Below are positions 3,161-36,024 of a DNA stretch of 64,000 nucleotides, piece by piece. The notes beneath the pieces are model-generated. The model had not been told where the DNA came from, did no database searches, and saw nothing but the letters and a program-made list of their open reading frames with translations. Numbering within the stretch: the first letter of the stretch is position 1; each line of letters begins with the position of its first letter. A program made the translations under genes and the position numbers. Source of the DNA: a virus; the IMG/VR virus record IMGVR_UViG_3300031951_000028, one strand, 5' to 3'.

Positions 3161-3613
3161 TTAGTACAATTGAATTCGGATACGAGCAAAACCGTTAACC
3201 TTGGCTGATTCGAATGTACCAACTCTTACGCTAGAGGTTGTAGTAGTAAACAAACCACCTGCGGTGAAGTGGGCGGCATTACCAGGAGCAGGACTTGAAC
3301 CAGTATGGATCATATCGGTGACAATCCAGCCACCTTTTAAGACTTCAACTTTAGAACCAACTTGAGTTTCCATCTTTGATTGCATCAATGGGCAAGTGGT
3401 TAAATCTTTATTGACAACGTCTTGCATAAGAACACCGCAAGGTTGACCAGTAGTTCCAGTAGGAACAGTCGCGGTATTAACATCAGTATCCAAACCTGGC
3501 TGACCAACAGCACCAGTAGGATAAATTAGAACAATACCAGCTTCAGCTACTTCATTTAAGTAGAATGAAACTTCGCTATCACCGCGATTGAAAAAACGAT
3601 CTCGTTTTAACAT
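3161..3613 (-). CDS. Capsid decoration/cement protein
   Basis: 150-aa Gly-rich beta protein immediately upstream of the MCP. Confidence 0.55.
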   Translation of the reverse strand: MLKRDRFFNRGDSEVSFYLNEVAEAGIVLIYPTGAVGQPGLDTDVNTATVPTGTTGQPCGVLMQDVVNKDLTTCPLMQSKMETQVGSKVEVLKGGWIVTDMIHTGSSPAPGNAAHFTAGGLFTTTTSSVRVGTFESAKVNGFARIRIQLY

Positions 3614-4944
3614 TAGTTTTTATCTCCGTCGATATTTACGTTTATTAAACTAGCTATAATTTTTTGCAATTCAGAATACTCTTCTTCTTTTGAGGAAGCA
3701 GTAGTATCTACATTAACCTGTGCCTGACTAGTATTTACAACTGGTTCAACACTGGCTAAAACTTGTTGAGGAGTTTGAGCACTGTTATCAACCACGGTAG
3801 AAGTCGAGCTTTTAGCTGCTGCAACTAAGGCCTCTTTTACAGGAGCCCATTGCTCATCAGTTAAATTTATATATAACTTAGCACTTGCTGAAGCCTTATC
3901 TTTACCAAGGCCTTCAGATGTAAGTTCTGTTTCGCGGGTAAGTGTTTGATATTCTGTTTTTAGATTATCAATTGATGCTTTCAATTCAATATTTTCTTTC
4001 TGAAAGGCTTCTAGTTCAACCTGAGCTTTAGTCTTAGTCTCTTCTAAGAGTGCGGCCAAGGCTTCTTTTTCTGACTTCAATGCTTCAAAACTTGCCTGAA
4101 GATTGGCAAACTCTTGCTTCAAAGCATCTAAATCAGTTTGAATAGTATCTGACATTGTTTTATTCTCCAATACATGTGCTACTAAAGATTGTACACCGTC
4201 TTCATAGTCCGATGGTGCTGGAATATTAGTAAAAATAATACTTCTTTTGTTTGCTGGATTGGTTGTAAAACCTTTTCCAGTAAAAATTATACCTCTTGGC
4301 GCTCTACCAACTCTATACTCGCCAAACATACCATTTCCTCCAAAACAGCGTAAATGATTGGATATTTCAGCTGTTTCTTCAGATCTTTTAACTACTTTAT
4401 ACTCTTCTTTAGAAGATAACACATAGTCAAAATCTTCAAACACACATTCCATAGAAACAAACATTTTATTTTCTTCTATAGAATTTATAAGACCCATTAC
4501 TTGGGTTGCTTTTTCTTCTTCATACCATGATGTATATACAACACTAGCATTAACTAGACTATATATAGCTGGTAGCTCATCAACAGGAGTTTCATCAGGT
4601 ATAATTTCACCATGATCGTTAACAGCCCATATATCAGTCATATGGCCAACTATAACATCTTGGTCATGATTTATATTCACTGGATGATGTATGGGTGTGT
4701 GTCTAGCTTGCCATACTTCATCTTTTAGAAAAACATCATCGTTCATATTCCACACTGTGGATACTAGAATTGATGTTACTGGATATAAATCTTTTGTTAA
4801 TTTTTTATTAGCTGTTGCAAAATTTTGCACAGCATCATTTATAAACTGAGCTTTATTATCATAAGTTAATTCAGTACAGTAAGATATAGATCTACTGTTA
4901 AGAATTTGCCCAGCTATATTACGTTCTGCTTTGTAAATTTTCAT
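3613..4944 (-). CDS. Prohead protease/scaffold fusion
   Basis: N-terminal NMNDDVF, NINH, VSMEC, F.GKG...NPA motifs; C-terminal coiled coil. Confidence 0.6.
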   Translation of the reverse strand: MKIYKAERNIAGQILNSRSISYCTELTYDNKAQFINDAVQNFATANKKLTKDLYPVTSILVSTVWNMNDDVFLKDEVWQARHTPIHHPVNINHDQDVIVGHMTDIWAVNDHGEIIPDETPVDELPAIYSLVNASVVYTSWYEEEKATQVMGLINSIEENKMFVSMECVFEDFDYVLSSKEEYKVVKRSEETAEISNHLRCFGGNGMFGEYRVGRAPRGIIFTGKGFTTNPANKRSIIFTNIPAPSDYEDGVQSLVAHVLENKTMSDTIQTDLDALKQEFANLQASFEALKSEKEALAALLEETKTKAQVELEAFQKENIELKASIDNLKTEYQTLTRETELTSEGLGKDKASASAKLYINLTDEQWAPVKEALVAAAKSSTSTVVDNSAQTPQQVLASVEPVVNTSQAQVNVDTTASSKEEEYSELQKIIASLINVNIDGDKN

Positions 4945-6880
4945 TATAAATTATAGTATAAATGTCTATTTTTTCTTCTTGAGACAACTCGCGAGACAAC
5001 GAAGACGCAATACTAGTTACTAAATTATTAATCTTTTTTAGAAAATCTCTGTTAATTTTTACACCAAGCAAGTTTTTAAGCTCTTCATCTCCTATTTTAG
5101 TAGGGTCTGATAAATTAAAAAACATAGTATTTCTTAAATCGTCGTAATCAGCATACTGCACGGTGGTTAAGTCTCTTAAAGCTTTCTTTTTATAAGCTTT
5201 TAATACTATTGGTTTTAAGAAATTACTAATTTTTTCATAAGCTATCTTAGACTGTAATTTATTACCCATAGAACCTATAGGATTAAACTTCTGTCTTTGT
5301 CTCTGTTTAGTATCTTTCTTATTTTTTGGACGGCCCGGTATACCCTGATTTTTATCAGGTTGAGGTAATGGTTTTAATTTAAAGTTATCTATAGTATCAA
5401 TACCAGTTTTACTCGGATTAATTAAACCTTTAGATATGGCATCTCTTAAAACCAACTTTTCAAAATCACCTTCATTGTAAGGGCCTGGTTTACGAGCTCT
5501 CTTACCTTTATCTCGCTGCTTCTCTTCTTTATTAATTCTAGCTCTTTCTAGTTCTGGATTATTATTAAACGCATGTTGCAATAGCTCATCAGAAATCAAG
5601 TTTCTATCAGCTAACTGTATTAGTAATGCTTTATAAGCAGTATCGTCTGTTAAATTAGAAAAATCAAATTCAACAATAGGTTCTTTTGAAAAACCCATCG
5701 CTTCTTGAACTTGTTTTAATTCATTCATCCAGAAATTAGATAATATCATTCTACCATGCTCTAATCTCTGCAATAAGGTTTTTAAGCTTATAAAGTTATT
5801 AGTTGAACCGGCACTATTGGTTGCCCCAGCTAAAGTAGATGGTATACCTAAACCTTGATAAATCTTTTCTAGGTGAGGGACATACTTTTCTTTTCCTAGG
5901 AATTGATGTACTGTAGTTTTACTCTCTTCTAGTTCTATAGCCTCATCCCAGATAATATCTATGGTACCACCAGGAGAATGAGATTGTAAAACATCATCTA
6001 ATCTTTGAAATAATGCTTCAGTAGGAATTAATTTCTTTTCTACATTACCAAGTTTAAATATTCTAATATTAGAAATTGCTCCATCTAAAGCTGTTCTATC
6101 GGCCAGTTCTAGTCTATAAAGCATATCTATATCTCTAAAAACAGAATATAAGATAGGTTTGGCCCATGAGCACCAATCATCTTTACGATAATGATAAACT
6201 ATAGTAGTGTCTGGTTCTAATGGTATTGGAGTCCCTTTTTTAATAGCTTCCCTTATATCTTTTTGTAAATCAGAATATTTTGGATTTTTGCTATTTCTAG
6301 TATCAAATGCTTGTGGGATAGTTATGACATATTTCTTTTCTTTATAGAAACATGAAAGGTCACCGCCTTCGACTTCAACAATAGCTGGATTAATAAAGGT
6401 ATAAGAATAAGGTATAATTTGACTGGCAGAGCTCATATCTTTTCTCTGCTTTTTGGTTATTTTTCCCATGCTCTTCTTGATAACAACATTAGCATAGCGA
6501 TATAAATAATTCGCAAATCTTTCAGTCACTTCTTGACCGTTTACATGCTTATACCAAGCGCGATAAAAACGCTCCACGCTTTTAACTGGATGTGAGATTC
6601 TTAATCCTTGCCCAGTAAAATCAGCCATTAAATCTATAATATTTCTAATTAAAGAGCAATCATAATACACCCAAGATGCCTTCATCATGATATCTGAGTG
6701 TTTTATAGGCTGGCCACCTCTTTGACTATCCCAATCTGCGCGATTAAAGCCATCTCTACCAGAAATATCTCCATCTACGCCATGATAAGTCTGTCTAAAA
6801 GATGCAAGAGCTTTATTTCTAGCGTCCATAACCTCTTTAGGCATCTCATCACCTTCCCAGCTTATATAATAATCTTTCAT
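4919..6880 (-). CDS. Portal protein
   Basis: 653 aa, directly downstream of the terminase; LIRNIIDLMADF and GLGIP motifs; basic C-terminal tail. Confidence 0.7.
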   Translation of the reverse strand: MKDYYISWEGDEMPKEVMDARNKALASFRQTYHGVDGDISGRDGFNRADWDSQRGGQPIKHSDIMMKASWVYYDCSLIRNIIDLMADFTGQGLRISHPVKSVERFYRAWYKHVNGQEVTERFANYLYRYANVVIKKSMGKITKKQRKDMSSASQIIPYSYTFINPAIVEVEGGDLSCFYKEKKYVITIPQAFDTRNSKNPKYSDLQKDIREAIKKGTPIPLEPDTTIVYHYRKDDWCSWAKPILYSVFRDIDMLYRLELADRTALDGAISNIRIFKLGNVEKKLIPTEALFQRLDDVLQSHSPGGTIDIIWDEAIELEESKTTVHQFLGKEKYVPHLEKIYQGLGIPSTLAGATNSAGSTNNFISLKTLLQRLEHGRMILSNFWMNELKQVQEAMGFSKEPIVEFDFSNLTDDTAYKALLIQLADRNLISDELLQHAFNNNPELERARINKEEKQRDKGKRARKPGPYNEGDFEKLVLRDAISKGLINPSKTGIDTIDNFKLKPLPQPDKNQGIPGRPKNKKDTKQRQRQKFNPIGSMGNKLQSKIAYEKISNFLKPIVLKAYKKKALRDLTTVQYADYDDLRNTMFFNLSDPTKIGDEELKNLLGVKINRDFLKKINNLVTSIASSLSRELSQEEKIDIYTIIYNENLQSRT

Positions 6881-6924: not shown

Positions 6925-8994
6925 CTATCGTCTAACTCTACCATAGAAATCTGGAGACATGTCTGTTAATGGCCCAGAAGCATATAATTTTTGATTCTTG
7001 TTAATAGGTTTATGAGATTGTGATCCAGATAAGAATCCAAGGATATTGTATGCTGGGGGAGCTATAGTAATTCTACCAGTAGTTCTTGCTCCCATATTGG
7101 CCATAACTAATGAACTATATCTATCTTTTCTCATTCTAGCTTTTTTACCAGTACCAACTTTAGTTTCTGGAGTGTCCCATCTTTCAGAGCCCGTGGGGGT
7201 TTTTGTATGAACTATACTTGCTAACTCAGATTTAAGTTCTTCTATTTCAAACATACAATCTTCAAGAGTATCATATAAACCTATTTTTTCTTCAATATCT
7301 CCATATTTGATACCTGAATCTTCTATCTTCTTCTTATCTTCTTGATGAGCAATAGCTAAGGTTACACTATCAAACTCAGGAAATAATAATAATTTTTGTT
7401 CAAAATCATATTTTAAACCATGATTTGCTTCTTGAACCCATTTTTGATTTACGAACTGGCACATAGTTAAAATATGCAAACCAGGTAAATCATCTGTTAT
7501 TTTTGGGTCTTCTTCATCAATTACTGGATAAATAGGCATAGACCCATCTCTTGGGGTAGCTAATGCCTGTTCTAAAGTACGGCCACCACCCTGCGCGTCC
7601 ATGTAAATACCAACACAGGGAAATACACTCATTAAATCTCTTATTTTCTGGACACAATACTGGAAATAATCATTTTCCTTAACTATCCCAGCTAGCACTT
7701 TCTGCTGATGCTTTTTTCTATTAATTGTCCAGCAATTAACAATTCTTGTGTGGTCTTCATGCAGTTCCAATACCGTGATCGCCATGTTATCAACTTCGGA
7801 TGCAGGATCGACACCAAAAACATACTTTAAATTTTTGTCACCAGCTATTTTAGCGGTATATATAATTTTTTTACCATTTATTGTAATACTATTTTTATGA
7901 CTTGCTACACAAGACCTTATTAAACTACTTCTAATAAAACCTGCAGAATCTTTGCTAAATACTGCTCCATACTCTCTATTATATGAGTCTGATGTCATGC
8001 TAGCTTTAGCTCTAGCAACTGTGCTGGCATCCATGATACCTGCTGGTATTAATTCATAAGGTATTCTTATAATAGAATAATCTTTCCAATTAAGTTTATG
8101 AATCTCTTCGTCACCCATTATACCTTCTAATTTTTTAACATCTCCACGGCTTTCTATAATACTTTTATAGACTTTCCAGTATCTAGCAAAATGCTCAAAA
8201 TCATAAGTACATGTTCCTGAAAGTATGGATTGGTTTCCGCCTTTAGAAGAAAAATTTTCTTCCATTTCTGCAGTCCAAGTACCTTCTTTTATCATATAAT
8301 CTCTTTTAAAGAACAAATTCATGTTCTCTATAGGATTTTTGGCTACGGCGCCGAAACCTGAAATAACAACTTCATATATTTCTGGATTAACTGACCCGAA
8401 TTCGTCCATGATAACTGTGTGTGCTCTTAAGCCTCTAATAGTTTGGCCATCTCCAACGGGAACGAAATGAGCTTCACTTTTCCCTATAAAGAAAGAGCAT
8501 TTATCTTGGAATGTATGTGGTCCGTCATTCCTGCCACATGTTGATCTATATACATCGCCCGCATCCCACATTTTATTAGCTTCTTGGAATACGAATTTTG
8601 ATTGTCTGTATGCCGCGCCGCAAACAACTATCTTAGAGCCTGGAACGAGCCTAAGCTTTAACATTACATAAAGAGCTAACAAAAAGGTTTTGCTGAAACC
8701 TCTACTGCCAATCAACATTGGGAACGGTCTTTTCCATAATTCTTCTAACACTAGTGCCTGCATTGGTGATAGAGTAATATTAAATAATATTTTTGCGGCC
8801 CACCATAGATAGTTAGATGTCGACATCAATCTGACAACATCATATGCAGGGATCTTACTAGTTTTTATATCTAATGGGTTAAAAGCTTTTGAAGCTGCTA
8901 TGAGTTGATTAGAATTAAGTCTTGTGTAGGCAAAATCCTTCATATCATATATTTCATTAGCTATTTTGAGGATTTTCTTATCCATTCTATCCAC
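6925..8994 (-). CDS. terL: Terminase large subunit
   Basis: Walker A GSRGFSKT, IRGLRA, Walker B VIMDE, RNase-H nuclease FGVDPA, C-terminal KDRYS. Confidence 0.9.
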   Translation of the reverse strand: MDRMDKKILKIANEIYDMKDFAYTRLNSNQLIAASKAFNPLDIKTSKIPAYDVVRLMSTSNYLWWAAKILFNITLSPMQALVLEELWKRPFPMLIGSRGFSKTFLLALYVMLKLRLVPGSKIVVCGAAYRQSKFVFQEANKMWDAGDVYRSTCGRNDGPHTFQDKCSFFIGKSEAHFVPVGDGQTIRGLRAHTVIMDEFGSVNPEIYEVVISGFGAVAKNPIENMNLFFKRDYMIKEGTWTAEMEENFSSKGGNQSILSGTCTYDFEHFARYWKVYKSIIESRGDVKKLEGIMGDEEIHKLNWKDYSIIRIPYELIPAGIMDASTVARAKASMTSDSYNREYGAVFSKDSAGFIRSSLIRSCVASHKNSITINGKKIIYTAKIAGDKNLKYVFGVDPASEVDNMAITVLELHEDHTRIVNCWTINRKKHQQKVLAGIVKENDYFQYCVQKIRDLMSVFPCVGIYMDAQGGGRTLEQALATPRDGSMPIYPVIDEEDPKITDDLPGLHILTMCQFVNQKWVQEANHGLKYDFEQKLLLFPEFDSVTLAIAHQEDKKKIEDSGIKYGDIEEKIGLYDTLEDCMFEIEELKSELASIVHTKTPTGSERWDTPETKVGTGKKARMRKDRYSSLVMANMGARTTGRITIAPPAYNILGFLSGSQSHKPINKNQKLYASGPLTDMSPDFYGRVRR

Positions 8995-11950: not shown

Positions 11951-12030
11951 AAATTTAAATTATTAAAAATTGACTAAAAAAACCGCTTATATATTAATAT
12001 ACCACGCGCCAGCTATTTTTTATATTATTT

Positions 12031-12477
12031 TTATATTTTTTTCCTAAAATAATAACAAAAAGGTTGGAGGCCCCACTTTTCTTGTGGAATATACAGCTCG
12101 TAACCGCATCTGATCAGGTTATTGGCGCTAGCTATATTTTCTGGACTAACATAAGTTACAATTGTGTGGACATTTTGTAAGCGGGCAAACTTTTCTCTCG
12201 CTTTTATAAAGCGTTGTTGGAGGCCTTGACCTCTAAAATCTTTTTTAACTACTGATCTAGCAAGGAATGCCCAGCCTGGGATCCAAATACTTAAGCAGGT
12301 AGCGCCAACTAATTTATTATTGTCTGTATCGAATGCTCCCCACCAATATGCAGTACTTTTATTATTAATTTTTGAATAAGGCGCATCTAACGGTAATACT
12401 TCTAGTTCGAGCGCCAAAATGCTTTCAAGGTTCTTTTCGGAACGTGGAAGTTTTCGTATACTAATGTGAGTAGACAT
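12031..12477 (-). CDS. GNAT acetyltransferase
   Basis: V..DFRGQGL motif A; N.AS.NNL..CGY. Confidence 0.85.
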   Translation of the reverse strand: MSTHISIRKLPRSEKNLESILALELEVLPLDAPYSKINNKSTAYWWGAFDTDNNKLVGATCLSIWIPGWAFLARSVVKKDFRGQGLQQRFIKAREKFARLQNVHTIVTYVSPENIASANNLIRCGYELYIPQEKWGLQPFCYYFRKKI

Positions 12478-12657
12478 AAAAGAACTTCATAGTTAGTAAA
12501 AGTATATGATAGATATTATACACCGGGGGAAGGAAGATAGTATAATAGCGTTTGTTAGCCTTTACAACTCTATGAGTTTCTGTGAGTTTTCGCGCGCACC
12601 ACCCCCGCCTGCGGCACTATGTCGCACCCTACCGGGGGAGGGAATTAAAATGGGGTC

Positions 12658-12762
12658 GGCGGTCGGCGGTCGGCGGTCGGCGGTCGGCGGTCGGCGGTCG
12701 GCGGTCGGCGGTCGGCGGTCGGCGGTCGGCGGTCGGCGGTCGGCGGTCGGCGGTCGGCGGTC
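12658..12762. repeat. (GGCGGTC)x15 perfect heptamer tandem repeat
   Basis: 105 bp of exact 7-mer units at the AT-rich to GC-rich transition. Confidence 0.95.
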
Positions 12763-13052
12763 CAGTCTCATTTCCAAAGTGTCCAGTAAGTTTCTCAAAA
12801 CTTTTTTTCTCGCGTTTTTCCCGTAAAAAGTGGGCAAAACAAAATAAAATTTTTTTTCCTTTACTTTTGGCGGCCACAAACCGATATAATACTTCACCGG
12901 GACAGCAAACCGGCCACACGGGAAACGTGTGGTAAAGCTCTTTGAAAATCTGGCGAATAACTAACCGCGTGTAACGGTTACACGTGGTCACAATCCGGCG
13001 ACATATCGCCAGCCCGGATTGTAGACAATGGCGATAATTGGAGAGAATTATC

Positions 13053-13583
13053 ATGTCGAATAAGCAAACAACTCTGTCGAAAATCCGCGAAACCGCTGCT
13101 GATTATGCCGCTGATTTTGAGGCTTTCAAGCGGTTGATGGAAGCTCAAGCTGACTGCGTGAAAGGGTTGATAGGTGAAGACGATGGTCGTGCAAGGTGGC
13201 TGAAAATCCTTGAAAACGATTTCGACGTTGACCGATTTTCACGGATTGGGACGTTTTACAATGCTCTGTGCGGCGGGGAAGACTTCCCCGGCTGGGTTAA
13301 CTGTTATCTGGAGAAGGTGAACCCTGATTACAGGAAAGATTTCAAGGATATTATTCCTGAAGCCTTCAGCGAAGCCTTGAAGCTCTGGGTTACTGAACTT
13401 TGCAGGATTCTCCCGCAGGGAATGAAGCGGAAGAAGGATATCACAGGCAAAAAGCCCCCTCTTCCTGTGAAGTTCGGACAATATTTCAGTGCGGTGCTGA
13501 AAACCTGTGTCGAAGAATTTGGCTGGGCCGACTCAGAGGCAGCTTCTGGAGAACATATCGAAAGCGAAAAGTGGGATATCTAA
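13053..13583 (+). CDS. Hypothetical protein (GC-rich codon usage)
   Basis: GGAGAG Shine-Dalgarno before ATG 13053; terminator follows. Confidence 0.75.
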   Translation: MSNKQTTLSKIRETAADYAADFEAFKRLMEAQADCVKGLIGEDDGRARWLKILENDFDVDRFSRIGTFYNALCGGEDFPGWVNCYLEKVNPDYRKDFKDIIPEAFSEALKLWVTELCRILPQGMKRKKDITGKKPPLPVKFGQYFSAVLKTCVEEFGWADSEAASGEHIESEKWDI

Positions 13584-13602
13584 CCCACTTCGACAGCCAA
13601 CC

Positions 13603-13635
13603 AGCCCATCGGCTAACCAGCCGGTGGGCTTTTTT
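13603..13635 (+). terminator. Intrinsic terminator
   Basis: AGCCCATCGGCT-AACC-AGCCGGTGGGCT followed by TTTTT. Confidence 0.85.
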
Positions 13636-14115
13636 CGTGCCCCTCGCCCGGAGGGGCTTTCCTGGCCGCCCACAGCCGGCTGTCAGGCCCAACAAACGCT
13701 TCTAATTAGGCGGAGGCGACCTTGATGAAAGGTCTCCGCCCCGGCCGAGCGTAGCGAGGCCGCTCTTCGCTGGCGCGCGAAGCATATCGCCAGCGGTCGA
13801 GCGAAGCGAGTCCTTTCCTCTTAGTCCTAGCGCAGGCCCCTTGAGGGGCCGAGCACAGCGAAGCGGGGGGTAGGCGCAGCCCCCGAGGGGGCGAGTATGC
13901 GACCAATGTGAGCGGGGCCGCTGGCGCGCAAGCACATCGAAGCGATCGATAGATCGCGTAGATACGTGCTTGCACATCGCCAGCGCTACGCGTGAGCGAT
14001 AGCGAACACTAAGGAGATGAGCGGCAGCGAATCTCCCTAGGCCTCGTCAGAGGCCGCGTATCGCCGCGCGCGACGGCGCGCATAAGCGATACGTCTTCGC
14101 TGGCGCGGCGCGATA

Positions 14116-14155
14116 GCAAGCGGCATGCCAGGGCTTTGACTGGCATGACGTTTGC
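14116..14155. promoter_or_regulatory. Inverted pair of sigma54 -24/-12 motifs forming a hairpin (copy 1)
   Basis: Plus strand TGGCATGACGTTTGC; minus strand TGGCATGCCGCTTGCT; both GG-N10-GC. Confidence 0.55.
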
Positions 14156-14208
14156 CGCGCCATATAGCCAGCGCTTCCGAGGCTTTGCGAGGGCAGTTGA
14201 TACAAACC

Positions 14209-14469
14209 GCGCAGGCCCCTTGAGGGGCCGAGCACAGCGAAGCGGGGGGTAGGCGCAGCCCCCGAGGGGGCGAGCATGCGACTTTGGAGCGGGGGGCGCA
14301 GGCCCCTTGAGGGGCCGAGCACAGCGAAGCGGGGGGTAGGCGCAGCCCCCGAGGGGGCGAGCATGCGACTTTGGAGCGGGGGGCGCAGGCCCCTTGAGGG
14401 GCCGAGCACAGCGAAGCGGGGGGTAGGCGCAGCCCCCGAGGGGGCGAGCATGCGACTTTGGAGCGGGGG
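14209..14469. repeat. Three tandem 87-bp palindrome-containing repeats (fourth partial copy at 13830-13903)
   Basis: Units start at 14209, 14296, 14383; each has GGCCCCTTGAGGGGCC, GCGAAGC and GCCCCCGAGGGGGC. Confidence 0.95.
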
Positions 14470-14486
14470 GCTGGCGCGGCGCGATA

Positions 14487-14526
14487 GCAAGCGGCATGCC
14501 AGGGCTTTGACTGGCATGACGTTTGC
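14487..14526. promoter_or_regulatory. Inverted pair of sigma54 -24/-12 motifs forming a hairpin (copy 2)
   Basis: Identical to 14116-14155. Confidence 0.55.
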
Positions 14527-14592
14527 AGCGCCATATAGCCAGCTCGTGCGAGGTTTTGCGAGCTCAGTTTTGTTTTTTTAACGGCTAGAGAT

Positions 14593-14615
14593 AAAAAAAG
14601 GAGCCTTTCGGCTCC
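14593..14615 (-). terminator. Intrinsic terminator of the 15091-14621 gene
   Basis: Minus strand GGAGCC-GAAA-GGCTCC followed by T7. Confidence 0.8.
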
Positions 14616-14620
14616 ACGGA

Positions 14621-15091
14621 CTAGTTGAAGCAGCCGAAAGTTTCGACTAACTGCACCATCCAGCCGCTTTCCCCATAGGTTCCGATGCAGCTGATGGCGT
14701 CTTTGGTAAAGACCCATTTGCCGCCGAACTGGGCGTCAGTCCGAACTGCGATAAGGCAGCGGCGGACTGGGATGTTGTGGACGCGGAGTTCCGCGTTTAG
14801 GAACTTGTCTTTCCGCGTGATGCGAACAGCCACTGCGGCTCCGCTAGGGGCAAGAAGGGGTTGGGAGCCTGCATCAAAGGAGACCATTTGGTCAGGCTCC
14901 AGCATACAAAGCACCCTAGGAACGGCAGACGTCCACTCCTCGGCGTTTTCTTGGTCTGCAGGACCCTGACTGACGCGGAAGTCAGACTCTTTTAGGACAG
15001 TCCGGCCCGTAATCAGGGCGTCGGAGGGGATGAAGCACCCTGTTTCTTGGCGTTCCGCAGCTTCCGTAACTCTACCATTTTTCCGTTTCAT
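14621..15091 (-). CDS. Hypothetical 156-aa protein (intact arm of the inverted duplication)
   Basis: AGGAGAG SD before ATG 15091, open frame, terminator downstream. Confidence 0.55.
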   Translation of the reverse strand: MKRKNGRVTEAAERQETGCFIPSDALITGRTVLKESDFRVSQGPADQENAEEWTSAVPRVLCMLEPDQMVSFDAGSQPLLAPSGAAVAVRITRKDKFLNAELRVHNIPVRRCLIAVRTDAQFGGKWVFTKDAISCIGTYGESGWMVQLVETFGCFN

Positions 15092-15357
15092 AAGCTCTCT
15101 CCTAGCAAGTGGGTCGAGAAGTTCGACCCTTCGCGGAAAAGGCGGACGATAGAGTATGAACAATAAAAAAATGCGTGCGAGGCTTTGCGAGCACTCATCT
15201 AGACCGTTACAAGTGTAAGTGGAGAGCGGAAAAAAATGCAAAATTTAAAAAAATTTGAGCTTTGACAAATTTTTTTAGTTATCTAATCGCCACTGTGTAG
15301 TTAAATCGCAGCCTAATTTTGTATTTTTTTAGCTTGCGGCCGCTCGTAACGGGTAAG

Positions 15358-15930
15358 CCGCCTAGCGAGGGTCGAACTTCTCGACACACTTGCGACCAAA
15401 GGAGAGAGCGTAATGAAACGAGAAAAATGGCAGAGTTACGGAAGCTTGTATTGCGGAACGACAAGAAACGGGGTGATTCAGACCCGGAGACCAATGCGTT
15501 ACGGGACGGACTGTCTTAAAAGAGGATGGCTTTCGCGTCACAAAAGGGTCTGGCAGAGCAAGAAAGCGTCGAGGAGTGGGCGTTTGCCGTTTCTAGGGTG
15601 TTTTGTATGTTGGAGCCCGACCAAATGGTATCATTTGATACAGGGGCCCGACGCCTTATTGTCACTAGTGGAGACGTAGTGGTTGTTCGCGTCACGTGGA
15701 AAGGCGAGTTTTTAAACGCGGGACTACGTGTCCACAATATTCCAGTCTGCCGCTGTCTTATCGCTGTTCGGAGTGGCTCCTAGTTTGGCGGCGAATTGGT
15801 CTTTGCCGAAGACGTTATCAGTTGTATCGGAACCGCCGGGGAAAGCGGCTGGATGGTACAGTTAGTCGAAACTTTCGGCTGCTTCAACTAGTCCGTTGAG
15901 ACGAAAGGATCCTTATTTTAGCTCTGGCCG
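15358..15930 (+). pseudogene. Degenerate inverted copy of the 14582-15145 gene unit (fold-back arm)
   Basis: About 84% identity over the gap-free core, 5' frameshifts, in-frame TAG at 15781, broken terminator stem. Confidence 0.8.
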
Positions 15931-16028
15931 CTTCTTCGCTGGCGTGGTGCGGTAGCACCATATAGCCAGCGTGTGCGAGCTTTGCGAGCTCCATTTTAAT
16001 GTCACGGTTAAAGTTCGCATCTAAATGC

Positions 16029-16170
16029 TTCAGCGGCCGCAAATAGAACGGTGCGAGGCTTTGCGAGCACTCGTTCAGGCCGCAGCGGCCGTAAGCGGCC
16101 AGCGACGACCCCCTGGAGGGGGTCTAGCATCGGGGGTGTTGCGTGCCTGTAGTCCGAGGCTTTGCGAGGA
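16029..16170. repeat. ~140-bp structured element, copy 1
   Basis: Direct repeat of 23310-23455: GAACGGTGCGAGGCTTTGCGAGCACTCGTTC...GACCCCCTGGA(TA)GGGGGTCTAGCAT. Confidence 0.85.
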
Positions 16171-16291
16171 TTACAGAACAGCACGCCGCTTGGCAAGGAC
16201 GCACGCTGCAGGAACGTCAGAGAAGCGGTGAAAGACGTCCCGCAGCGTTCCTTTTGCTGCTAAAGTGCGGCCAGGGTCTCGGTTGAGACAG

Positions 16292-16322
16292 AAAAAAAGG
16301 AGAATGTTTCCACTCTCCCTTT
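16292..16322 (-). terminator. Terminator ending the minus-strand early cluster
   Basis: Minus strand GGAGAGTG-GAAA-CATTCTCC followed by T7. Confidence 0.7.
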
Positions 16323-16329
16323 ATTTTAT

Positions 16330-16488
16330 TTAATAATCTTCTGGATGAGGAACTTCTGGTCCCGTATACGCTGGATTCTTAACCCATACATCATATGGTG
16401 TTAATATCCATGGTTGTTCTTTTCTTTCTTCAGCTACATTAGCTGCGAATTCTCGCATAGCATCTTGTTCTGTAGCCATTTCATCCAT
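16330..16488 (-). CDS. Small hypothetical protein
   Basis: AGGAGAG SD before MDEMATEQ; WILTPYDVW..NP.Y.GP..PHPE C-terminus. Confidence 0.65.
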   Translation of the reverse strand: MDEMATEQDAMREFAANVAEERKEQPWILTPYDVWVKNPAYTGPEVPHPEDY

Positions 16489-16501
16489 TTTCTCTCTCCT
16501 G

Positions 16502-16729
16502 TTAATATGTTTCCTTAATGAAATCAATGATTTTATCCACACTGTAATCCCAGAAGTATCCAGTCCTTCCTTCTGGGGGATTCAGTTCTTGAATTTCAAA
16601 ATACTCCGCAGTTCGGTGCATCTTGAATTTGATTCCTTTATACTCAATATTGGCAATGTGCATATCACCATGTTCATCTGGTAATACATCTTCTACTGCC
16701 GCAATCCAAATGTTGTCGTTTTGAAACAT
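16502..16729 (-). CDS. Small hypothetical protein
   Basis: AGGAGAGAG SD; ORF track. Confidence 0.65.
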   Translation of the reverse strand: MFQNDNIWIAAVEDVLPDEHGDMHIANIEYKGIKFKMHRTAEYFEIQELNPPEGRTGYFWDYSVDKIIDFIKETY

Positions 16730-16738
16730 TTCTCTCTC

Positions 16739-16936
16739 CTATTGATAAATCTCTCTGAACTGCCTTACAAACCACGGCTCTTTAATAAGAGCAAAGATAC
16801 CAGCAATATTATAATGAAATGTCACAAGATCACCAGTTGTTTTGTGGTACATCTCTACTGGCGACTCTCCATTAAGCATAATGACTACTTCATGCCCATG
16901 CAACCAAAAACTGCAGAAGAATGTAAAATTCTCCAT
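16739..16936 (-). CDS. Small hypothetical protein
   Basis: Purine-rich SD; packed with neighbouring genes. Confidence 0.55.
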   Translation of the reverse strand: MENFTFFCSFWLHGHEVVIMLNGESPVEMYHKTTGDLVTFHYNIAGIFALIKEPWFVRQFREIYQ

Positions 16937-17166
16937 CTTTTTCTCTCTTCTATTTTATTTACCAAAACCACCCATCAAATAACCAATATACAACTTGTCC
17001 TGTTGCATATCCTGCATGAGCACTAAACAACCACATAGTTAATATGTTTATTCCTTTGTCCACTGGGCAATGTCTTGGTTTTTTCCACTCTTGTTCACTC
17101 AAATACTGAGCAAATTCAATAAACTCATCCATGAGTTTCTCCTAGTGATAAAATTGATTCTCTGCT

Positions 17167-17385
17167 TTACAGATGGACGCGCACCCGACCCAAAGCCGTG
17201 TGCAAATCTTCTACCTTCCTGATAAATTCGTCCGAACAACAGCCCGGATTTGCAAGGATTCGATTACATCGAGCTTCAAGTTCTTTCAACACACGGAAAT
17301 CCGACGCCTTATCAATTGCCGGAGGTTGGTTAATTGTTTGATTTGGACTGGCCCAACGTTGCGTTTCATTCATGTCAAACTCCAT
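17167..17385 (-). CDS. Small hypothetical protein
   Basis: ORF track; same strand as the cluster. Confidence 0.5.
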   Translation of the reverse strand: MEFDMNETQRWASPNQTINQPPAIDKASDFRVLKELEARCNRILANPGCCSDEFIRKVEDLHTALGRVRVHL

Positions 17386-17500
17386 TCATGCTAATTAAAA
17401 CCAAACACAATGTACAAAAACCGGTACTCCCAGCAGAGGAGAGATAACTGCTTAGTTTCCCGGTACAACTTAGAGGGAGAGAATCTCTTAGTTGTTAAAA

Positions 17501-21385: not shown

Positions 21386-21916
21386 TCAGCTTTGGACATA
21401 CATTCTTCCTTTTTCTGAATCAAACACTTTTTCAAATGAGACACGAGACCCGTTTTTAATTACGAACCAATTGCGAGGAAAGCGGCCCTCTGTGGCATTT
21501 ACATACACTTCCCACATTTCATCTTGGCTCCATCCAGCATGCCCCGTGCCAATCGGAGCAATTAAAAAATTGAGGAAGGGCTTCCTTTTTGTATACGAAT
21601 ACAGCTCTTTAAGCTGTGCCTCTATTTCTTCAAGTGGCACGCTGCGGGGTTGGACTGCTGTAGTACACGTGAGGATACCCCACCCAATTCCATCTGTTCC
21701 AGCCATTAGCCCGCTGGATATTCGAAGGACAGCAAACAACCCTCTAACGCGATTGCCACTGTTCCATTGATTTTGAAATTTTTTATTATTTTCCCATCCT
21801 GATGCTCTGCCCATATAAGCCCATCCGGCACTACCAGCCCCATGAAAACCATTTTCATTTGTTTGAAAAACGAAAATATCTCTATGTCCAATAGCACCCA
21901 ATGCGGGCAGTTCCAT
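21386..21916 (-). CDS. Macro-domain-like phage protein (A1S_2505-like)
   Basis: IFVF.TN..G.HGAG.A and IGTGHAGW motifs. Confidence 0.6.
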   Translation of the reverse strand: MELPALGAIGHRDIFVFQTNENGFHGAGSAGWAYMGRASGWENNKKFQNQWNSGNRVRGLFAVLRISSGLMAGTDGIGWGILTCTTAVQPRSVPLEEIEAQLKELYSYTKRKPFLNFLIAPIGTGHAGWSQDEMWEVYVNATEGRFPRNWFVIKNGSRVSFEKVFDSEKGRMYVQS

Positions 21917-23309: not shown

Positions 23310-23455
23310 TTCAGCGACCGCCAGAGGAACGGTGCGAGGCTTTGCGAGCACTCGTTCAGCCGGCAGCGGTCGCAATGGCCGGCCTAGCGACGACCCCCTG
23401 GATAGGGGGTCTAGCATTGGGGGTCGAGTCGAGACCGCAGACGAGGCTTTGCGAG
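23310..23455. repeat. ~140-bp structured element, copy 2
   Basis: Direct repeat of 16029-16170 with stem-preserving changes. Confidence 0.85.
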
Positions 23456-23584
23456 TCAAGGTCGAGACTTGCTTTTCCGCGTCGCATATTGATAAAAATA
23501 ATCTCAAAATAATACAGAAAATATATTAGAGGAAAAATTCCCGCCGTAAAGGCTGTTCAAGGGCTGTTAAAATTCCCTTAAGTC

Positions 23585-23600
23585 CGGCACGCTGTTTGCT
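23585..23600 (+). promoter_or_regulatory. Sigma54-type -24/-12 promoter
   Basis: CGGCACGCTGTTTGCT matches TGGCACG-N4-TTGCW, about 60 bp before the first plus-strand gene. Confidence 0.6.
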
Positions 23601-23662
23601 CTATAGTGGCCCGGCAAGTGCCGCATTTCCATTTTATAAATAAAAATAATAAATAAAATAAT

Positions 23663-24349
23663 ATGCAAAATAATAATTTTATTGTAGATAAAGTTCATGG
23701 TGAATTGTATAATAATATTTTATACTTTACCTTGGAAAAACGCGAAAGTTTAGAATATTTGTGGAATTTTCGTATCGAAAAGTCAAAGTTTAACAATAAT
23801 TTTGATAAATTTGCTAAGTTTTGCCGCGAAGTTACTAAAAAGACGGCCACGGAACTTAATAAGTACGTGGAAAATAAGGAAAAACTGCTCCCTATATTAG
23901 AATATAGTGGAAATAGCCCGCAAAAGTTAGAAATTCAGGCCAAACTTAATAAAATTATGCAAAATTTTGCTGAAATGGGCTTATTCCCATTAAAGCGTGT
24001 AGTTAAGTATAATCATATCCCGCTCAAGAAAAATATTACTGGATATGCTATCTTAGCTACTTCTACTTATAGTAATCAGTCTCATAATATTAATGCTGAG
24101 TATGAGCATCCGCGTGTTGCTATTGTAGAAGAAGAAAATAAAGAAGATAAAAAAGTTAGCTGGGAAATGGCCCCTCCCAAAAGAAAAGCCCCACGTAAGC
24201 GGCAATATACTAAAAGACGTGGGCCTTCTACTAATAATAAATATTTCACTATTGATACCCGCAGCTTAATTAAAGAAGATGAAGCTATGGGTATTGCTTA
24301 TAATGCAGAAAAGAATAATAGTATTAGTAAGTTGCTAGAGGATTTATAA
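23663..24349 (+). CDS. Hypothetical 228-aa protein heading the microprotein operon
   Basis: ORF track; its TAA overlaps the ATG of the first microprotein. Confidence 0.7.
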   Translation: MQNNNFIVDKVHGELYNNILYFTLEKRESLEYLWNFRIEKSKFNNNFDKFAKFCREVTKKTATELNKYVENKEKLLPILEYSGNSPQKLEIQAKLNKIMQNFAEMGLFPLKRVVKYNHIPLKKNITGYAILATSTYSNQSHNINAEYEHPRVAIVEEENKEDKKVSWEMAPPKRKAPRKRQYTKRRGPSTNNKYFTIDTRSLIKEDEAMGIAYNAEKNNSISKLLEDL

Positions 24350-24510
24350 TGGAATATAAAATTTCAGCCAGATTCTCAGATGCTAAAATGTTTATAATAT
24401 TAACGTGCAGCTCAGATAAATTAGTAGATGTAATTAGATTGAAAAGAAATCTTATATGTCGTTGGCTTATGAATAGTTTAATTATCAGAAAATATGAGAA
24501 TTTTAATTAA
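24349..24510 (+). CDS. Array microprotein MEYKISARFSDAKMFIILTCSSDKLVDVIRLKRNLICRW...
   Basis: Hand translation, 53 aa. Confidence 0.65.
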   Translation: MEYKISARFSDAKMFIILTCSSDKLVDVIRLKRNLICRWLMNSLIIRKYENFN

Positions 24511-24655
24511 ATACCGCAATTCCCGCATTTATTTATTTTTTAAAGATGAAAAAATGCGCAATATGGCATATACAAAACGTGGCATGATAAATTATCCCCA
24601 CCAAAGATTTTTCCTATTTACTCGCGGTGAATATGAGAGTATATGCACAAAATAA
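24494..24655 (+). CDS. Array microprotein MRILIKYRNSRIYLFFKDEKMRNMAYTKRGMINYP...
   Basis: Hand translation, 53 aa. Confidence 0.6.
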   Translation: MRILIKYRNSRIYLFFKDEKMRNMAYTKRGMINYPHQRFFLFTRGEYESICTK

Positions 24656-24792
24656 ATGTTAATTTTGACTCATGGGCGAATAGTTTTTGTCTGAAAACAG
24701 AAGATAAAATTATAATGGGTATGATAGTATTTAAAAGAATCATAATAATGCATCCACATATATCTAGTATTTATCTTTTAAAAACAATTTAA
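24643..24792 (+). CDS. Array microprotein MHKINVNFDSWANSFCLKTEDKIIMGMIVFKRIII...
   Basis: 49 aa; paralog of 26506. Confidence 0.65.
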   Translation: MHKINVNFDSWANSFCLKTEDKIIMGMIVFKRIIIMHPHISSIYLLKTI

Positions 24793-24793
24793 A

Positions 24794-24946
24794 ATGGATA
24801 AAATTCAAGTATATTATTCAGTAAGCCTAAAATGGTTTATATTGAAATATAGTTGCAAAAAAACCGCAGATGCTTTAAAAGATAGAATATATCTAATACA
24901 TATAGATACTCCAGTCTTATCAATGCGCCGCATACTTAAAGACTAA
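24794..24946 (+). CDS. Array microprotein MDKIQVYYSVSLKWFILKYSCKKTADALKDRIYLI...
   Basis: 50 aa. Confidence 0.6.
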   Translation: MDKIQVYYSVSLKWFILKYSCKKTADALKDRIYLIHIDTPVLSMRRILKD

Positions 24947-24949
24947 ATT

Positions 24950-25099
24950 ATGATTACAATAGTTCAAGACGAATCTACTCTAACGGCAATAAGCAAATAT
25001 AAATATATATCTTTAATCATGGGGATGAAGTTATTAATATTATCTAATACTGATAAGCTTATTGTTAAGGGCGGCGCTATTTTAGTTGAAATTGAATAA
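24950..25099 (+). CDS. Array microprotein MITIVQDESTLTAISKYKYISLIMGMKLLIL...
   Basis: 49 aa. Confidence 0.55.
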   Translation: MITIVQDESTLTAISKYKYISLIMGMKLLILSNTDKLIVKGGAILVEIE

Positions 25100-25101
25100 A
25101 T

Positions 25102-25251
25102 ATGTCAAATAAAATCATTGTTAGATACACCAGCAACCTTGATTTAATATCAATAATTTTCCCAGAAGATAAGATTTTTATGGTCGAAATATTACTAGAA
25201 AAACGGGCCGCAATTTCTCCTTTAGAAATAGCATTTTTAATTCAGACTTAA
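25102..25251 (+). CDS. Array microprotein MSNKIIVRYTSNLDLISIIFPEDKIFMVEILLEKRAAISP...
   Basis: 49 aa. Confidence 0.6.
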   Translation: MSNKIIVRYTSNLDLISIIFPEDKIFMVEILLEKRAAISPLEIAFLIQT

Positions 25252-25402
25252 AATAAATAGTCAAACTCAAACCACACTTTACGCCCGCCGAATTAAAGTA
25301 TGGCGTATGTATAAATATATACCTAGAAACAGTAGATTGGCATACTCTTGCAAGAAAAATTGCCACTATTGTAACATTTGATTATTATACTAGAATAATA
25401 AC

Positions 25403-25546
25403 ATGGCCAAGCCCATAAGAGTAAAATACTATCAATATACTTATCATTCTGATAGATATTTATATTTATCAATAAAAGATAAAGATATGTGGTTAAAAAT
25501 AAGGGCTAAAATAATTTGTATAAAGAATATCAGGTTTATAATATAA
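25403..25546 (+). CDS. Array microprotein MAKPIRVKYYQYTYHSDRYLYLSIKDKDMWLKIRAKIICI...
   Basis: 47 aa. Confidence 0.6.
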   Translation: MAKPIRVKYYQYTYHSDRYLYLSIKDKDMWLKIRAKIICIKNIRFII

Positions 25547-25585
25547 GTAAAAGGGACGCGGCCCGTAGATTTTTGACTGAATAAG

Positions 25586-25750
25586 ATGATTAATACTATA
25601 TATATAGATATAAACCCTCCAGGTATAGATTTACATATAAACAGTGAATCATTATTAAATACTATAACTCATAAAATACGTTGTCTTGGATATATGGAAA
25701 CTCCTCTTTATGTAAGATATCATGATAAACACTGTATATATAGACAATAA
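25586..25750 (+). CDS. Array microprotein, GID subfamily (MINTIYIDINPPGIDLHI...)
   Basis: 54 aa; clear paralog of 25722. Confidence 0.7.
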   Translation: MINTIYIDINPPGIDLHINSESLLNTITHKIRCLGYMETPLYVRYHDKHCIYRQ

Positions 25751-25940
25751 AGGTACAGGGATAGATATAGCCTGTACTGATAATACACTGGAGTTTGCAA
25801 ACAATATAAGGAAGAAATACCGTTTAATCCGAAATGGCCCGGTTATATCATTTAAAAATACACTCTATATTTTTTATTTTACTGAAGAAATGATGGAAAA
25901 AGCGCGGGAAAATGGCACTATTTATGAAAAACACGCGTAA
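25722..25940 (+). CDS. Array microprotein, GID subfamily (MINTVYIDNKGTGIDIAC...)
   Basis: ORF track, 72 aa. Confidence 0.7.
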   Translation: MINTVYIDNKGTGIDIACTDNTLEFANNIRKKYRLIRNGPVISFKNTLYIFYFTEEMMEKARENGTIYEKHA

Positions 25941-26335
25941 ATGAAGGGGATTTCGCGTTGATGAAGTTGGGCCCATAAATGATTATTATATACTTATCCC
26001 TATCCCCTCCCCCTCCCATAGGTTATTCTCCCCTTTATATATTCTATATATTGTATGGTATAATAGAGTATTATTCCCCTAGTAATATAATGATATATTC
26101 CCTGTGTTTTTGGGGGTAAAATGGGGAAATAGGTATTAGCTTTATGCAATATTTTAAAGTCGTTTTTCTCTATGGTATGGGCTATATTTTATACTGCCCG
26201 CACGACCAATATGCTATAAATTTACAGACAAAAAATTATTACGTATTTCCTAATCTATATTTAATTATATCAAAAGAGATATATAATAACACGATGAACA
26301 AAAGAATTATTTAACCAATTACCTATAATTCATTT

Positions 26336-26509
26336 ATGAAAATTAAAGTAAAAATAATCTACTTACTAAATCTTCGTTTTTGGACGCTTGATATCTACGG
26401 GCCGAGAAATTTTATAAAAAAAATGGAAGTAAAAAGGGGTTTGATGACTTCTTTTAATAAAACTTGTAGTATGTTAAATATTAATTTATTTTATTATAGA
26501 GATCAATGA
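26336..26509 (+). CDS. Array microprotein, GP subfamily (…LDIYGPRNFIKKMEVKRGLM…)
   Basis: 57 aa. Confidence 0.65.
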   Translation: MKIKVKIIYLLNLRFWTLDIYGPRNFIKKMEVKRGLMTSFNKTCSMLNINLFYYRDQ

Positions 26510-26667
26510 AAATAAAAGTTGAATTTGACTTACATGCAAATTGTTTTTGGCTCTCACCAAATAATAAATATGTATTGTCTATTATTATAGCTAAAAGATA
26601 TTTGATATGCAGCTGGAATACTCATGGGATTTTCCTTATGAATAAAAATTATGAATGCCAGATATAA
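26506..26667 (+). CDS. Array microprotein MKIKVEFDLHANCFWLSPNNKYVLSIIIAKRYLICSW...
   Basis: 53 aa; ATGA overlap. Confidence 0.65.
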   Translation: MKIKVEFDLHANCFWLSPNNKYVLSIIIAKRYLICSWNTHGIFLMNKNYECQI

Positions 26668-27370
26668 TAGAAAAATAAAAGCTTTTATAATAACTTTTAA
26701 TAAAAAGACCGGGGCGTATGCGAAAAACCTCTATCAGAAAAGGTTATTTCTTTATAAAACAGGAGCTGGTTTGAAAATATACGCAGAATATAAAAAATAA
26801 ATTATGAGAACAAGTAAAATATATGTAAGTTGGGATTATAATGTAAAATGTTATAGATTCGATGACCGTGATGGAGTATATATGTGGTTAATAGGGATGG
26901 TCAGGATTAAAAGAACATTCATTACCAAACACCATATCGGCCGCCACTCTTATCTTCATTTTCGCTAATGAATACAATACGGTTTAAATATTATAAAGCG
27001 CTCCGCTTATTCTTTTTTTACTTTCAAAACAAAAAACATGCAGAAAGTTTTAAAATAAAAAGTTATTTAATTGGTCGTTTTAAGATACACTCTCAATATG
27101 AAAATGATTTGGAATCTATATAATATTGACGCATCCTTCTGCGATTATGGTTGATTTTATTAGAAAGAAAAAGAATATGATAAACTGGTTTGTACGCTTG
27201 GGCGTATCGCAGAAACACAAACAAACATAATATGTTTTCAATAATTAATAATAAGTCAAGTTTAATCCTTATAACAATAGATAATTTAAAATATTATTAT
27301 ATAGTTTTAAATAAACTGACTGCAATGGTGGATAATTCTATTGTTCTAGAATATAGAAGCCCTAAGATAT

Positions 27371-27541
27371 ATGGCCGCAAGTAGTCAAACTCAAAACTCA
27401 CTTATCGCTTCCAGTATTAGAGTGTTGTGTTATGGCAAGTATTTATATTTAGAATCATTAGATTGGCTTAAAATTGATAATAAAATTGAATATATCAGGA
27501 AAAACAGAGGCGTAAGTAAAATAATGGCGTGGCCAAAATGA
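27371..27541 (+). CDS. Array microprotein (…YGKYLYLESLDWLKIDNKIEYI…MAWPK)
   Basis: 56 aa; paralog of the ATG-less frame at ~25257-25418. Confidence 0.6.
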   Translation: MAASSQTQNSLIASSIRVLCYGKYLYLESLDWLKIDNKIEYIRKNRGVSKIMAWPK

Positions 27542-27661
27542 TTAAAATAGACCGAGTTCATTATTATATACGTCTTAATATAACAGATAATAGATATATG
27601 TGTGGTTTATTATTTGCCCGCCTATTTTTGATTAAATATACTAAAATTCTAACAGAATCAT

Positions 27662-27850
27662 ATGATTGAACTAATAAATGTAAGAATTAGGCCGCGAAGA
27701 GGAATAGATTTATTGATATCTGTGGATTTTAAATGGTTTTATCAAAATATGAACAGTAAAATAATGTGTATTGAATATACTAAAACTGTTAATATATATC
27801 CATATTGGCCAATGTTCTCCGCGAGGCCATGCTCTCCGCGAGTCAAATAA
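27662..27850 (+). CDS. Array microprotein, GID subfamily
   Basis: RGIDLLI...NSKIMCI. Confidence 0.65.
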   Translation: MIELINVRIRPRRGIDLLISVDFKWFYQNMNSKIMCIEYTKTVNIYPYWPMFSARPCSPRVK

Positions 27851-28143
27851 AAGATAGACAAAATGTATATAAAAACTGATGGTGGTATAGGTATAGATAT
27901 ATATCTTAGTGAAGGGTGGACGAAAGTTACAGAGATGTTTTGGAAAAAGAAAAAACTTATCTATAGATTTACCTCAATATATTTTCATTCAAAAGATATA
28001 TGATTAAAGTAAAATTAGTAGATAGGCCTTATTCATTTATGATTCACTATATAGGGCCGCGAGATTCAATACGTCAAATATATTATAAAATAAATAAAAT
28101 CGGCTATTTTTCTAATTTATATTATAGTTGGTAGTGATATTAA

Positions 28144-28338
28144 ATGTATATTTCCTTTCCATCATCTGGTTATTATGTTCCTATAAATACTGGACATCTT
28201 AAATATATCGAACATCCAATATATTTTAATCTTATTTGGACCGATTCTGGCATGTATTATAAAAATATAATAGCCAAAAAAATAATACTTATTGCCCCAA
28301 GCCAAGATTGTAAGTTTATGAATTATTTTTATGAATAA
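28144..28338 (+). CDS. Array microprotein, GYY-HPI subfamily
   Basis: Paralog of 28719, 29061 and 29225. Confidence 0.7.
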   Translation: MYISFPSSGYYVPINTGHLKYIEHPIYFNLIWTDSGMYYKNIIAKKIILIAPSQDCKFMNYFYE

Positions 28339-28498: not shown

Positions 28499-28570
28499 AA
28501 AAATTGAAGTAGAGAAAATGTATTTATAAATATGGATCTGTTATAAGTAAAACCACAATGATTGAAACCA

Positions 28571-36018: not shown

Positions 36019-36024
36019 CTATTT

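Follow-up and report, generated by a model that had tools for sequence, protein, structure and literature searches.

The window, by which we mean the whole 64-kb stretch of viral DNA analyzed here, belongs to a large, AT-rich tailed phage (about 30% GC) and encodes a large terminase, a small sigma-70-family sigma factor, NAD salvage genes, an RNA ligase, and six tRNAs. The packaging genes and the large terminase are those of a tailed double-stranded DNA (dsDNA) phage, which is without close cultured relatives, its terminase being at most 26% identical to those of cultured phages. In two close relatives (L124, positions 3482-6832, and the same gene in L125), the terminase large subunit is a single 1116-aa frame, which relative to the 689-aa protein of the window has approximately 1.3 kb of extra sequence between residues 114 and 115; this insert, which is missing from the window phage, looks like an intein.

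The hairpins considered here sit in a 3.7-kb, hairpin-dense island with a GC content of 55-66% (approximately 12560-16290), bordered by minus-strand packaging and late genes on one side and by tRNA and early blocks on the other, i.e. at the late/early boundary. Within it are a (GGTCGGC)15 tract, numerous palindromes, and two small genes that belong to no known family; one of these genes faces its own frameshifted inverted copy. The 15 exact GGTCGGC heptamers (12656-12762) form the left edge of the island, and mini-hairpins of the types GCGAAGC, GCGTAGC, and GCGATAGC are densely packed in the region 13740-14100; d(GCGAAGC) is an unusually stable DNA mini-hairpin. Farther to the right, the 156-aa gene and its frameshifted copy form the two sides of a 386-nt inverted repeat (14582-15930). 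The mismatches of this repeat include 43 transitions that yield G.T on the + strand, 7 that yield G.T on the - strand, and 49 transversions, a bias that fits either folding of the + strand or mutation with a strand bias. A GC-rich structured element of approximately 140 nt is present twice (16029-16170 and 23310-23455), on either side of the minus-strand gene/tRNA block, and each copy carries a GACCCCC...GGGGGTC palindrome and two GCTTTG hairpins.

Searched against plasmids and GenBank phages at near and distant sensitivity, the island returned no match. The neighboring 176-aa and 156-aa proteins match no family and have no relative in IMG/VR; for the 156-aa protein there is no Pfam or PHROG family and no Atlas hit, and its AlphaFold model has a pLDDT of 34. 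Four protein relatives were found at 56-92% identity, those at 56% and 59% being relatives of the 156-aa protein. Over approximately 14405-17390, as far as tested, the window is matched colinearly by an independent JGI contig, L123, which also reproduces the right-hand junction of the island; the island is therefore not an assembly artefact.

Anatomy of the hairpin modules

The initial annotation described a 40-nt palindrome seen twice, at 14116-14155 and 14487-14526, and its sequence and coordinates proved exact, as did the mismatches listed for the folded + strand (one G.T pair and one unpaired G/A). In copy 1, the left arm GCAAGCGGCATGCCAG (14116-14131) and the right arm CTGGCATGACGTTTGC (14140-14155) enclose the centre ggctttga; copy 2 is offset from copy 1 by 371 nt. 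The 40-mer folds into 7 + 8 pairs on the + strand, with an energy of -15.1 kcal/mol (z -5.2), compared with -11.0 kcal/mol for the - strand. Both copies lie inside a 100-nt direct repeat (14099-14198 and 14470-14569, 93% identical) and are thus not independent of each other. The direct repeat flanks three exact 87-bp tandem units, which are members of repeat family D1; a fourth copy of this unit is located at 13830-13918.

The hairpin is longer than first noted, the palindrome being nested within a basal stem (GCTGGCGCGGCGC ... GCGCC-ATATA-GCCAGC) to give a module of about 75 nt in total (Table 1). This basal stem recurs with different apical contents at 13769-13795 and 13919-13985. In L123, an empty form (loop GGTA) and a filled form (GATA, the palindrome, and C) share identical basal arms, indicating that the palindrome behaves as a 41-nt insert in the loop. 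We considered an integron attC site or an IS200/IS605-type hairpin and rejected both, as on inspection the basal stem is without the attC core (RYYYAAC / GTTRRRY); the ORFs searched around the island gave no match to recombinase or transposase families.

Table 1. Positions of the hairpin modules, their repeats, and the sigma-54-type boxes in the window.
Feature	Position	Strand	Remarks
Copy 1 left-arm box CTGGCATGCCGCTTGCT, leftward	14115..14131	-	Strict match; 15.9 of 16.9; 14.4 bits
Copy 1 centre/loop GGCTTTGA	14132..14139	+	GCTTTG loop family member
Copy 1 right-arm box CTGGCATGACGTTTGCC, rightward into the 87-bp repeats	14140..14156	+	15.5 of 16.9; 15.3 bits
Copy 1 whole module, basal stem GCTGGCGCGGCGC / GCGCC-ATATA-GCCAGC around the palindrome	14099..14173	+	Fold -33.3 kcal/mol, z -3.8
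GCTTTG-loop hairpin after module 1	14174..14192	+	
Three exact 87-bp tandem units between the modules	14209..14471		Each with palindromes GGCCCCTTGAGGGGCC and GCCCCCGAGGGGGC
Copy 2 left-arm box CTGGCATGCCGCTTGCT, leftward into the 87-bp repeats	14486..14502	-	Strict match; consensus and matrix scores
Copy 2 centre/loop GGCTTTGA	14503..14510	+	GCTTTG loop family member
Copy 2 right-arm box CTGGCATGACGTTTGCA, best match in the window	14511..14527	+	Strict match; 16.2 of 16.9
Copy 2 whole module, same basal stem	14470..14544	+	Conserved in the independent contig L123
GTTTTG-loop hairpin and T run after module 2, intrinsic-terminator-like	14541..14576	+	Terminator-like site 14541-14564 plus T run
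Empty basal stem, loop GGTA, without palindrome	15937..15971	+	
Separate sigma-54-like box CCGGCACGCTGTTTGCT	23584..23600	+	Consensus score and relatives' matrix

L123 is the only true homologue of the element that was compared, and across the module it is 97% identical to the window, with a single change in the palindrome (the G/A mismatch becomes A/A), so that the comparative test of the element itself is minimal. Elsewhere in the island, both partners of a base pair differ between the window and L123: a T-A pair of the empty basal stem is replaced by C-G in L123, and an A-T pair of an AT-rich hairpin at 15245-15278 by T-A. These compensated changes indicate that the hairpins of the island are under selection as hairpins, on the + strand.

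The centre of the palindrome belongs to a family of GCTTTG loops with at least ten members, all of them on the + strand, closed by unrelated stems that covary. A loop of the same form, RGCTTTGA, also closes the AT-rich stem at 15245-15278, which is unrelated to that of the palindrome. Membership in a family that is confined to the + strand and has covarying stems speaks for the folded form being of importance as well, and the GCTTTG centre is a hint that the element has an additional role as a hairpin. The motif CGAGGCTTTGCGAG is found at seven to eight sites between 14177 and 23455, only on the + strand and usually as a 12-nt loop closed by unrelated stems. In IMG/VR, the 14-nt GCTTTG motif gave single chance matches only, and the apex pattern retrieved just five terminator-like hairpins, which are unrelated.

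The region 14166-14580 folds at -218 kcal/mol on the + strand versus -175 kcal/mol on the - strand. This preference, that of the 40-mer, the G.T bias of the 386-nt inverted repeat, the compensated changes in other island stems, the family loop, and the near-continuous stem of the palindrome all favor a different explanation of the element, namely that it works only when folded, either as RNA, within a + strand transcript of the island, or as extruded or replicative single-stranded DNA (ssDNA), and is read via the GCTTTG loop, with any likeness to a sigma-54 promoter being incidental. We regard this as possible but on the unlikely side. No Rfam family matches the element (over 12000-17000 the search yielded chance-level matches only, all below the gathering scores), and the composition of the arms, described in the next section, also speaks against a purely structural role.

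Sigma-54-type boxes in the palindrome arms

Enhancer-dependent sigma-54 (RpoN) promoters of bacteria follow the consensus TGGCAC-N5-TTGCW. As the initial annotation had proposed, both arms of the palindrome fit the GG-N10-GC core, and they fit the extended consensus as well, all four arms of the two copies scoring 15.5-16.2 of 16.9. The match reaches the semi-conserved positions, i.e. the Y before TGG, CAC/CAT-G, and the W after TTGC. TGGCAY-N5-TTGCW is found three times in the 64-kb window, each time in the hairpins, compared with 0.15 matches expected from shuffles; the fourth arm, which ends in TTGCC, falls outside the strict pattern. Given the duplication and the palindromy, these box matches count as one independent event, not four.

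A stem free to take any sequence would match TGGCAY-N5-TTGC very rarely, roughly 2 in a million per register, which is difficult to reconcile with an element that is functional only as a fold. The pattern of variation is likewise that expected of boxes rather than of a stem: the variable arm positions of the window (two arm differences and the one change in L123) all fall inside N5, for which the chance is about 0.03, and none of them is compensated. On the other side, 14 of the 16 arm positions are in agreement, which exceeds what selection on boxes alone would need, and this counts against the box reading.

On balance, we favor, with modest confidence, a palindrome that is a head-to-head pair of sigma-54-type (-24/-12) boxes acting on dsDNA, this phage's form of a control module that its relatives (next section) have at the same late/early boundary, upstream of the late sigma-factor gene; sigma-54 would be the reader of the boxes. 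We also tried a sigma-70 reading, with TTGACT in the centre and CATATA downstream, and rejected it, as the spacing of 19-21 nt is not workable; no sigma-70-type site was found at the palindrome modules.

Boxes in phages that share the late sigma-factor gene

Because L123, at 97% identity, is uninformative on the boxes, we instead examined phages that share the neighboring late sigma-factor gene (22 IMG/VR loci, 19 of them non-redundant, with shared proteins 27-43% identical). The 19 non-redundant contigs contain 15 matches to TGGCA[CT]-N5-TTGC, all of which are located in the 61 kb upstream of the sigma gene, compared with 0.59 in block shuffles (about 25-fold enrichment); the other 177 kb contain none. 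The matches are textbook sites such as TTGGCACGGGATTTGCT, mostly single, asymmetric, and oriented, and three of them lie at promoter distance from genes. No box is present in most of the 22 loci, and many of these boxless loci have very short upstream flanks. In approximately half of the 22 loci (L148-L169), the contig stops 0-4 kb upstream of the late sigma gene, the boundary being either the end of a genome or repeat-rich DNA at which assemblies break.

That related phages carry these boxes at the same boundary of the genome indicates that the boxes are probably real control signals on dsDNA and not a promoter formed by fold-back of a single strand. It also leaves an element that is functional only as a fold with an enrichment that it does not explain, since the relatives' boxes occur without hairpins or with unpaired spacers. 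A weight-matrix scan, which the initial annotation had called for, was run with a matrix built from the relatives' sites alone, and it placed the four arms among the six best matches of the window; eight window matches reach at least 14 bits, compared with 0.29 expected. The remaining two of the six are the site at 23584-23600 and an intragenic site. The latter (21536-21552, - strand) scores well as a sigma-54 site but lies in a coding frame, has ATGC at the -12 position, and is probably a chance match.

The most elaborate arrangement among the relatives is found in L169. Three boxes each lead, after approximately 35 nt, to a ribosome-binding site rich in purines and then to an ATG, and two of these three gene-proximal boxes have three 14-bp repeats and an A-tract upstream; judged by layout, they look like complete enhancer-dependent promoters. 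L169 also contains head-to-head box pairs at 6213-6250 and 7620-7657. TGGCA and TTTGC are kept between the copies and between the arms of these pairs, the N5 spacers and the centre differ, and the pairs fold through the boxes only, at -8 to -9.5 kcal/mol versus -15.1 kcal/mol in the window. In L169, L159, and L160, further boxes are oriented toward hairpin pairs that lie a constant distance away. The two L169 pairs are part of a module of approximately 400 bp present in two copies (5861-6251 and 7260-7658, 75% identical), each of which holds a sigma-54 core with a gene, an A-tract, three repeats of the GTAGCATTTTGCAAC type, a box pointing backward, a double hairpin containing G.T pairs, and the head-to-head box pair; this makes it well suited to defining the control module of the clade.

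The initial annotation had regarded homologous hairpins that keep the stem but lose GG/GC as evidence against a promoter; we observed the opposite, in that the relatives keep GG/GC and lose the stem. Accordingly, its suggestion of back-to-back divergent sigma-54-type sites in duplex DNA is borne out by three lines of evidence, namely the fit to the consensus, the enrichment of boxes at the boundary in relatives, and the persistence of the boxes where the pairing of the spacers is lost.

Boxes in duplex DNA could instead be bound by a dimeric protein other than sigma-54, of phage or host origin, with a half-site that happens to resemble TGGCA-N5-TTGC, in which case the palindrome would be an operator or a boundary mark rather than a site for RNA polymerase. 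Its two-fold symmetry would suit a dimer, no gene lies downstream of the boxes, and no activator is encoded nearby. Moreover, palindromes of the GGCAA-N4-TTGCC type form tandem arrays resembling binding sites in unrelated viral contigs; such arrays, together with intragenic matches, make up most of the 21 loci that a generic head-to-head pattern retrieved from IMG/VR, a number at about chance level. One look-alike from this class, in L146, was discarded because it lies inside an ORF. A dimeric reader nevertheless seems improbable to us: it does not account for relatives' boxes that are mostly single and oriented, some of them at promoter distance, nor for a match that extends to the semi-conserved positions of the sigma-54 consensus, and no candidate binding protein was found, the 176-aa and 156-aa neighbors having no family match.

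Possible output of the boxes and comparison with known systems

If the palindrome is a pair of sigma-54-type boxes, host sigma-54 RNA polymerase could dock on one arm at a time, since the -24 boxes of a pair are just 15 bp apart. The two outward-facing boxes of the locus have the palindromic 87-bp repeats approximately 95-170 bp upstream by our estimate, the usual distance of an enhancer, and from this position the 87-bp units bracketed by the two copies may serve as candidate enhancer sites. No credible ORF was found downstream of any of the four boxes. The right-arm box of copy 2 has a predicted start near 14538, approximately 3 nt before the terminator-like hairpin, and beyond that, transcription would be antisense to the 156-aa gene; from the leftward box of copy 1 it would be antisense to the 176-aa gene, toward the acetyltransferase and sigma-factor genes 1.6 kb away. 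The bound holoenzyme, together with an activator, might produce non-coding or antisense transcripts. Alternatively, it could remain parked in a closed complex, marking and insulating the boundary. The predicted start is covered by the 3' arm of the basal stem, and an RNA initiated at these boxes therefore cannot contain the basal hairpin, a point in favor of a hairpin that functions without them. In the reading that we favor, the near-continuous stem, the GCTTTG centre, and the basal stem show that the boxes arose within a hairpin scaffold, or were inserted into one, and that this scaffold has its own function.

A search of all frames of the 64 kb for the GAFTGA activator motif found none, and the window encodes no RpoN box; the AAA+ genes that are present are MoxR/CbbQ-like. 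Contigs of distant relatives were binned in six MAGs, assigned to Chitinophagia, Flavobacteriales, Smithella, Phycisphaerales, Proteobacteria, and Saccharibacteria. A sigma-54 DNA-binding domain is encoded in four of the five MAGs searched; for the host of the window phage this is a weak hint, showing only that nothing points to a host without rpoN.

Bacterial sigma-54 promoters, including divergent pairs that share one enhancer, resemble the phage element in the GG-N10-GC core and extended consensus of each arm and in the palindromic repeats upstream of its outward-facing boxes; in the relatives, repeats and an A-tract upstream of the boxes and a gene located at promoter distance add to the similarity. 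In contrast to the bacterial promoters, the boxes of the window are head-to-head, with closely set -24 boxes, and together make up an almost perfect palindrome inside a larger stem. They also differ in having no downstream gene and no activator gene in the 64 kb.

The initial annotation had put forward a second possibility, modeled on the Frpo / ssi elements of F-like plasmids, which have sigma-70-type -35/-10 boxes and lie in the leading region that enters the cell as ssDNA. In this case the single-stranded + strand would fold back so that the stem recreates a sigma-54 promoter, which would prime or transcribe leftwards on ssDNA. The likeness lies in a long imperfect hairpin whose stem could recreate a promoter and in the preference for one strand; the phage hairpin is stable, with the + strand form favored by one G.T pair. 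Furthermore, the folded form has a 3-nt bulge (ATA) just past the -12 GC, loosely like the fork junction that sigma-54 binds. This reading is poorly supported, and we consider it highly improbable. None of the defining features of Frpo / ssi (sigma-70-type boxes, a plasmid leading region, entry as ssDNA) applies to the phage palindrome, around which there are no -35/-10 boxes at a workable spacing. With its packaging genes and large terminase, the window is a tailed dsDNA phage rather than a conjugative leading region or an ssDNA replicon, and no single-stranded entry stage is expected; to our knowledge, none is known for tailed dsDNA phages. The island, as noted, has no plasmid match. In addition, each arm is already a complete box in ordinary duplex, the arm differences are uncompensated, and the relatives carry boxes without the hairpin.

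Among phages, sigma-54 promoters are almost unstudied. Our literature search returned one worked example, Pseudomonas phage YuA, and no paired or palindromic sigma-54 boxes in phages. As reported by Ceyssens 2008 (cited in PMC10914365), YuA has a sigma-54-like promoter with a consistent mapped start site. It is likewise a phage that depends on a promoter of the host sigma-54 type; the YuA site is a single conventional promoter in an unrelated phage, whereas here a palindromic pair is set inside a hairpin scaffold. Boxes with no gene behind them have a counterpart in E. coli, where PMC4591121 describes sigma-54 holoenzyme sitting inactive at sites that drive no gene. By that description the E. 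coli sites are mostly intragenic, single, and chromosomal; the phage modules are repeated and intergenic. The promoter-early stem-loop (PeSL) cassettes of the T4-type phages RB49 and phi1 combine strong sigma-70-like promoters with a terminator stem-loop (PMC2839356). They too are small, repeated cassettes of promoter and stem-loop at the gene-cassette borders of a large phage, but in PeSL the sigma-70-like promoter adjoins the stem-loop, whereas here the -24/-12-type boxes form the stem themselves (PMC2839356). What is new here is a sigma-54-type box pair that forms a nearly perfect hairpin stem, with a family-type loop, in a modular stem.

A broader generalization, about which we are doubtful, is that widespread, uncultured large phages use head-to-head box pairs beside palindromes to dock or trap sigma-54 holoenzyme, as a closed complex, at cassette and late/early boundaries, and that in the window the pair has been fused into a hairpin scaffold, giving a dual element acting both as duplex and, through its GCTTTG loop, as a folded strand. 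If so, phages would use the host's sigma-54 polymerase in an undescribed way. Binding of the host holoenzyme by the boxes would constitute a new layer of phage-host control, in which a broad set of uncultured freshwater and marine phages would tie part of their programme to an activator-dependent polymerase or, alternatively, sequester it. The variant in the window connects boxes of the sigma-54 type with the GC-rich hairpin island, itself unexplained, and it provides a clean test object, in that the same 40-mer can be compared as a duplex and folded.

Finally, the separate sigma-54-like box of the window lies approximately 64 nt before the ATG at 23664, which begins the first gene of an array of small genes on the + strand. 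Over the 14 kb from 23500 to 37500, sigma-70-type sites are not in excess (110 found, 108 expected), and the box may therefore be the promoter of the array.
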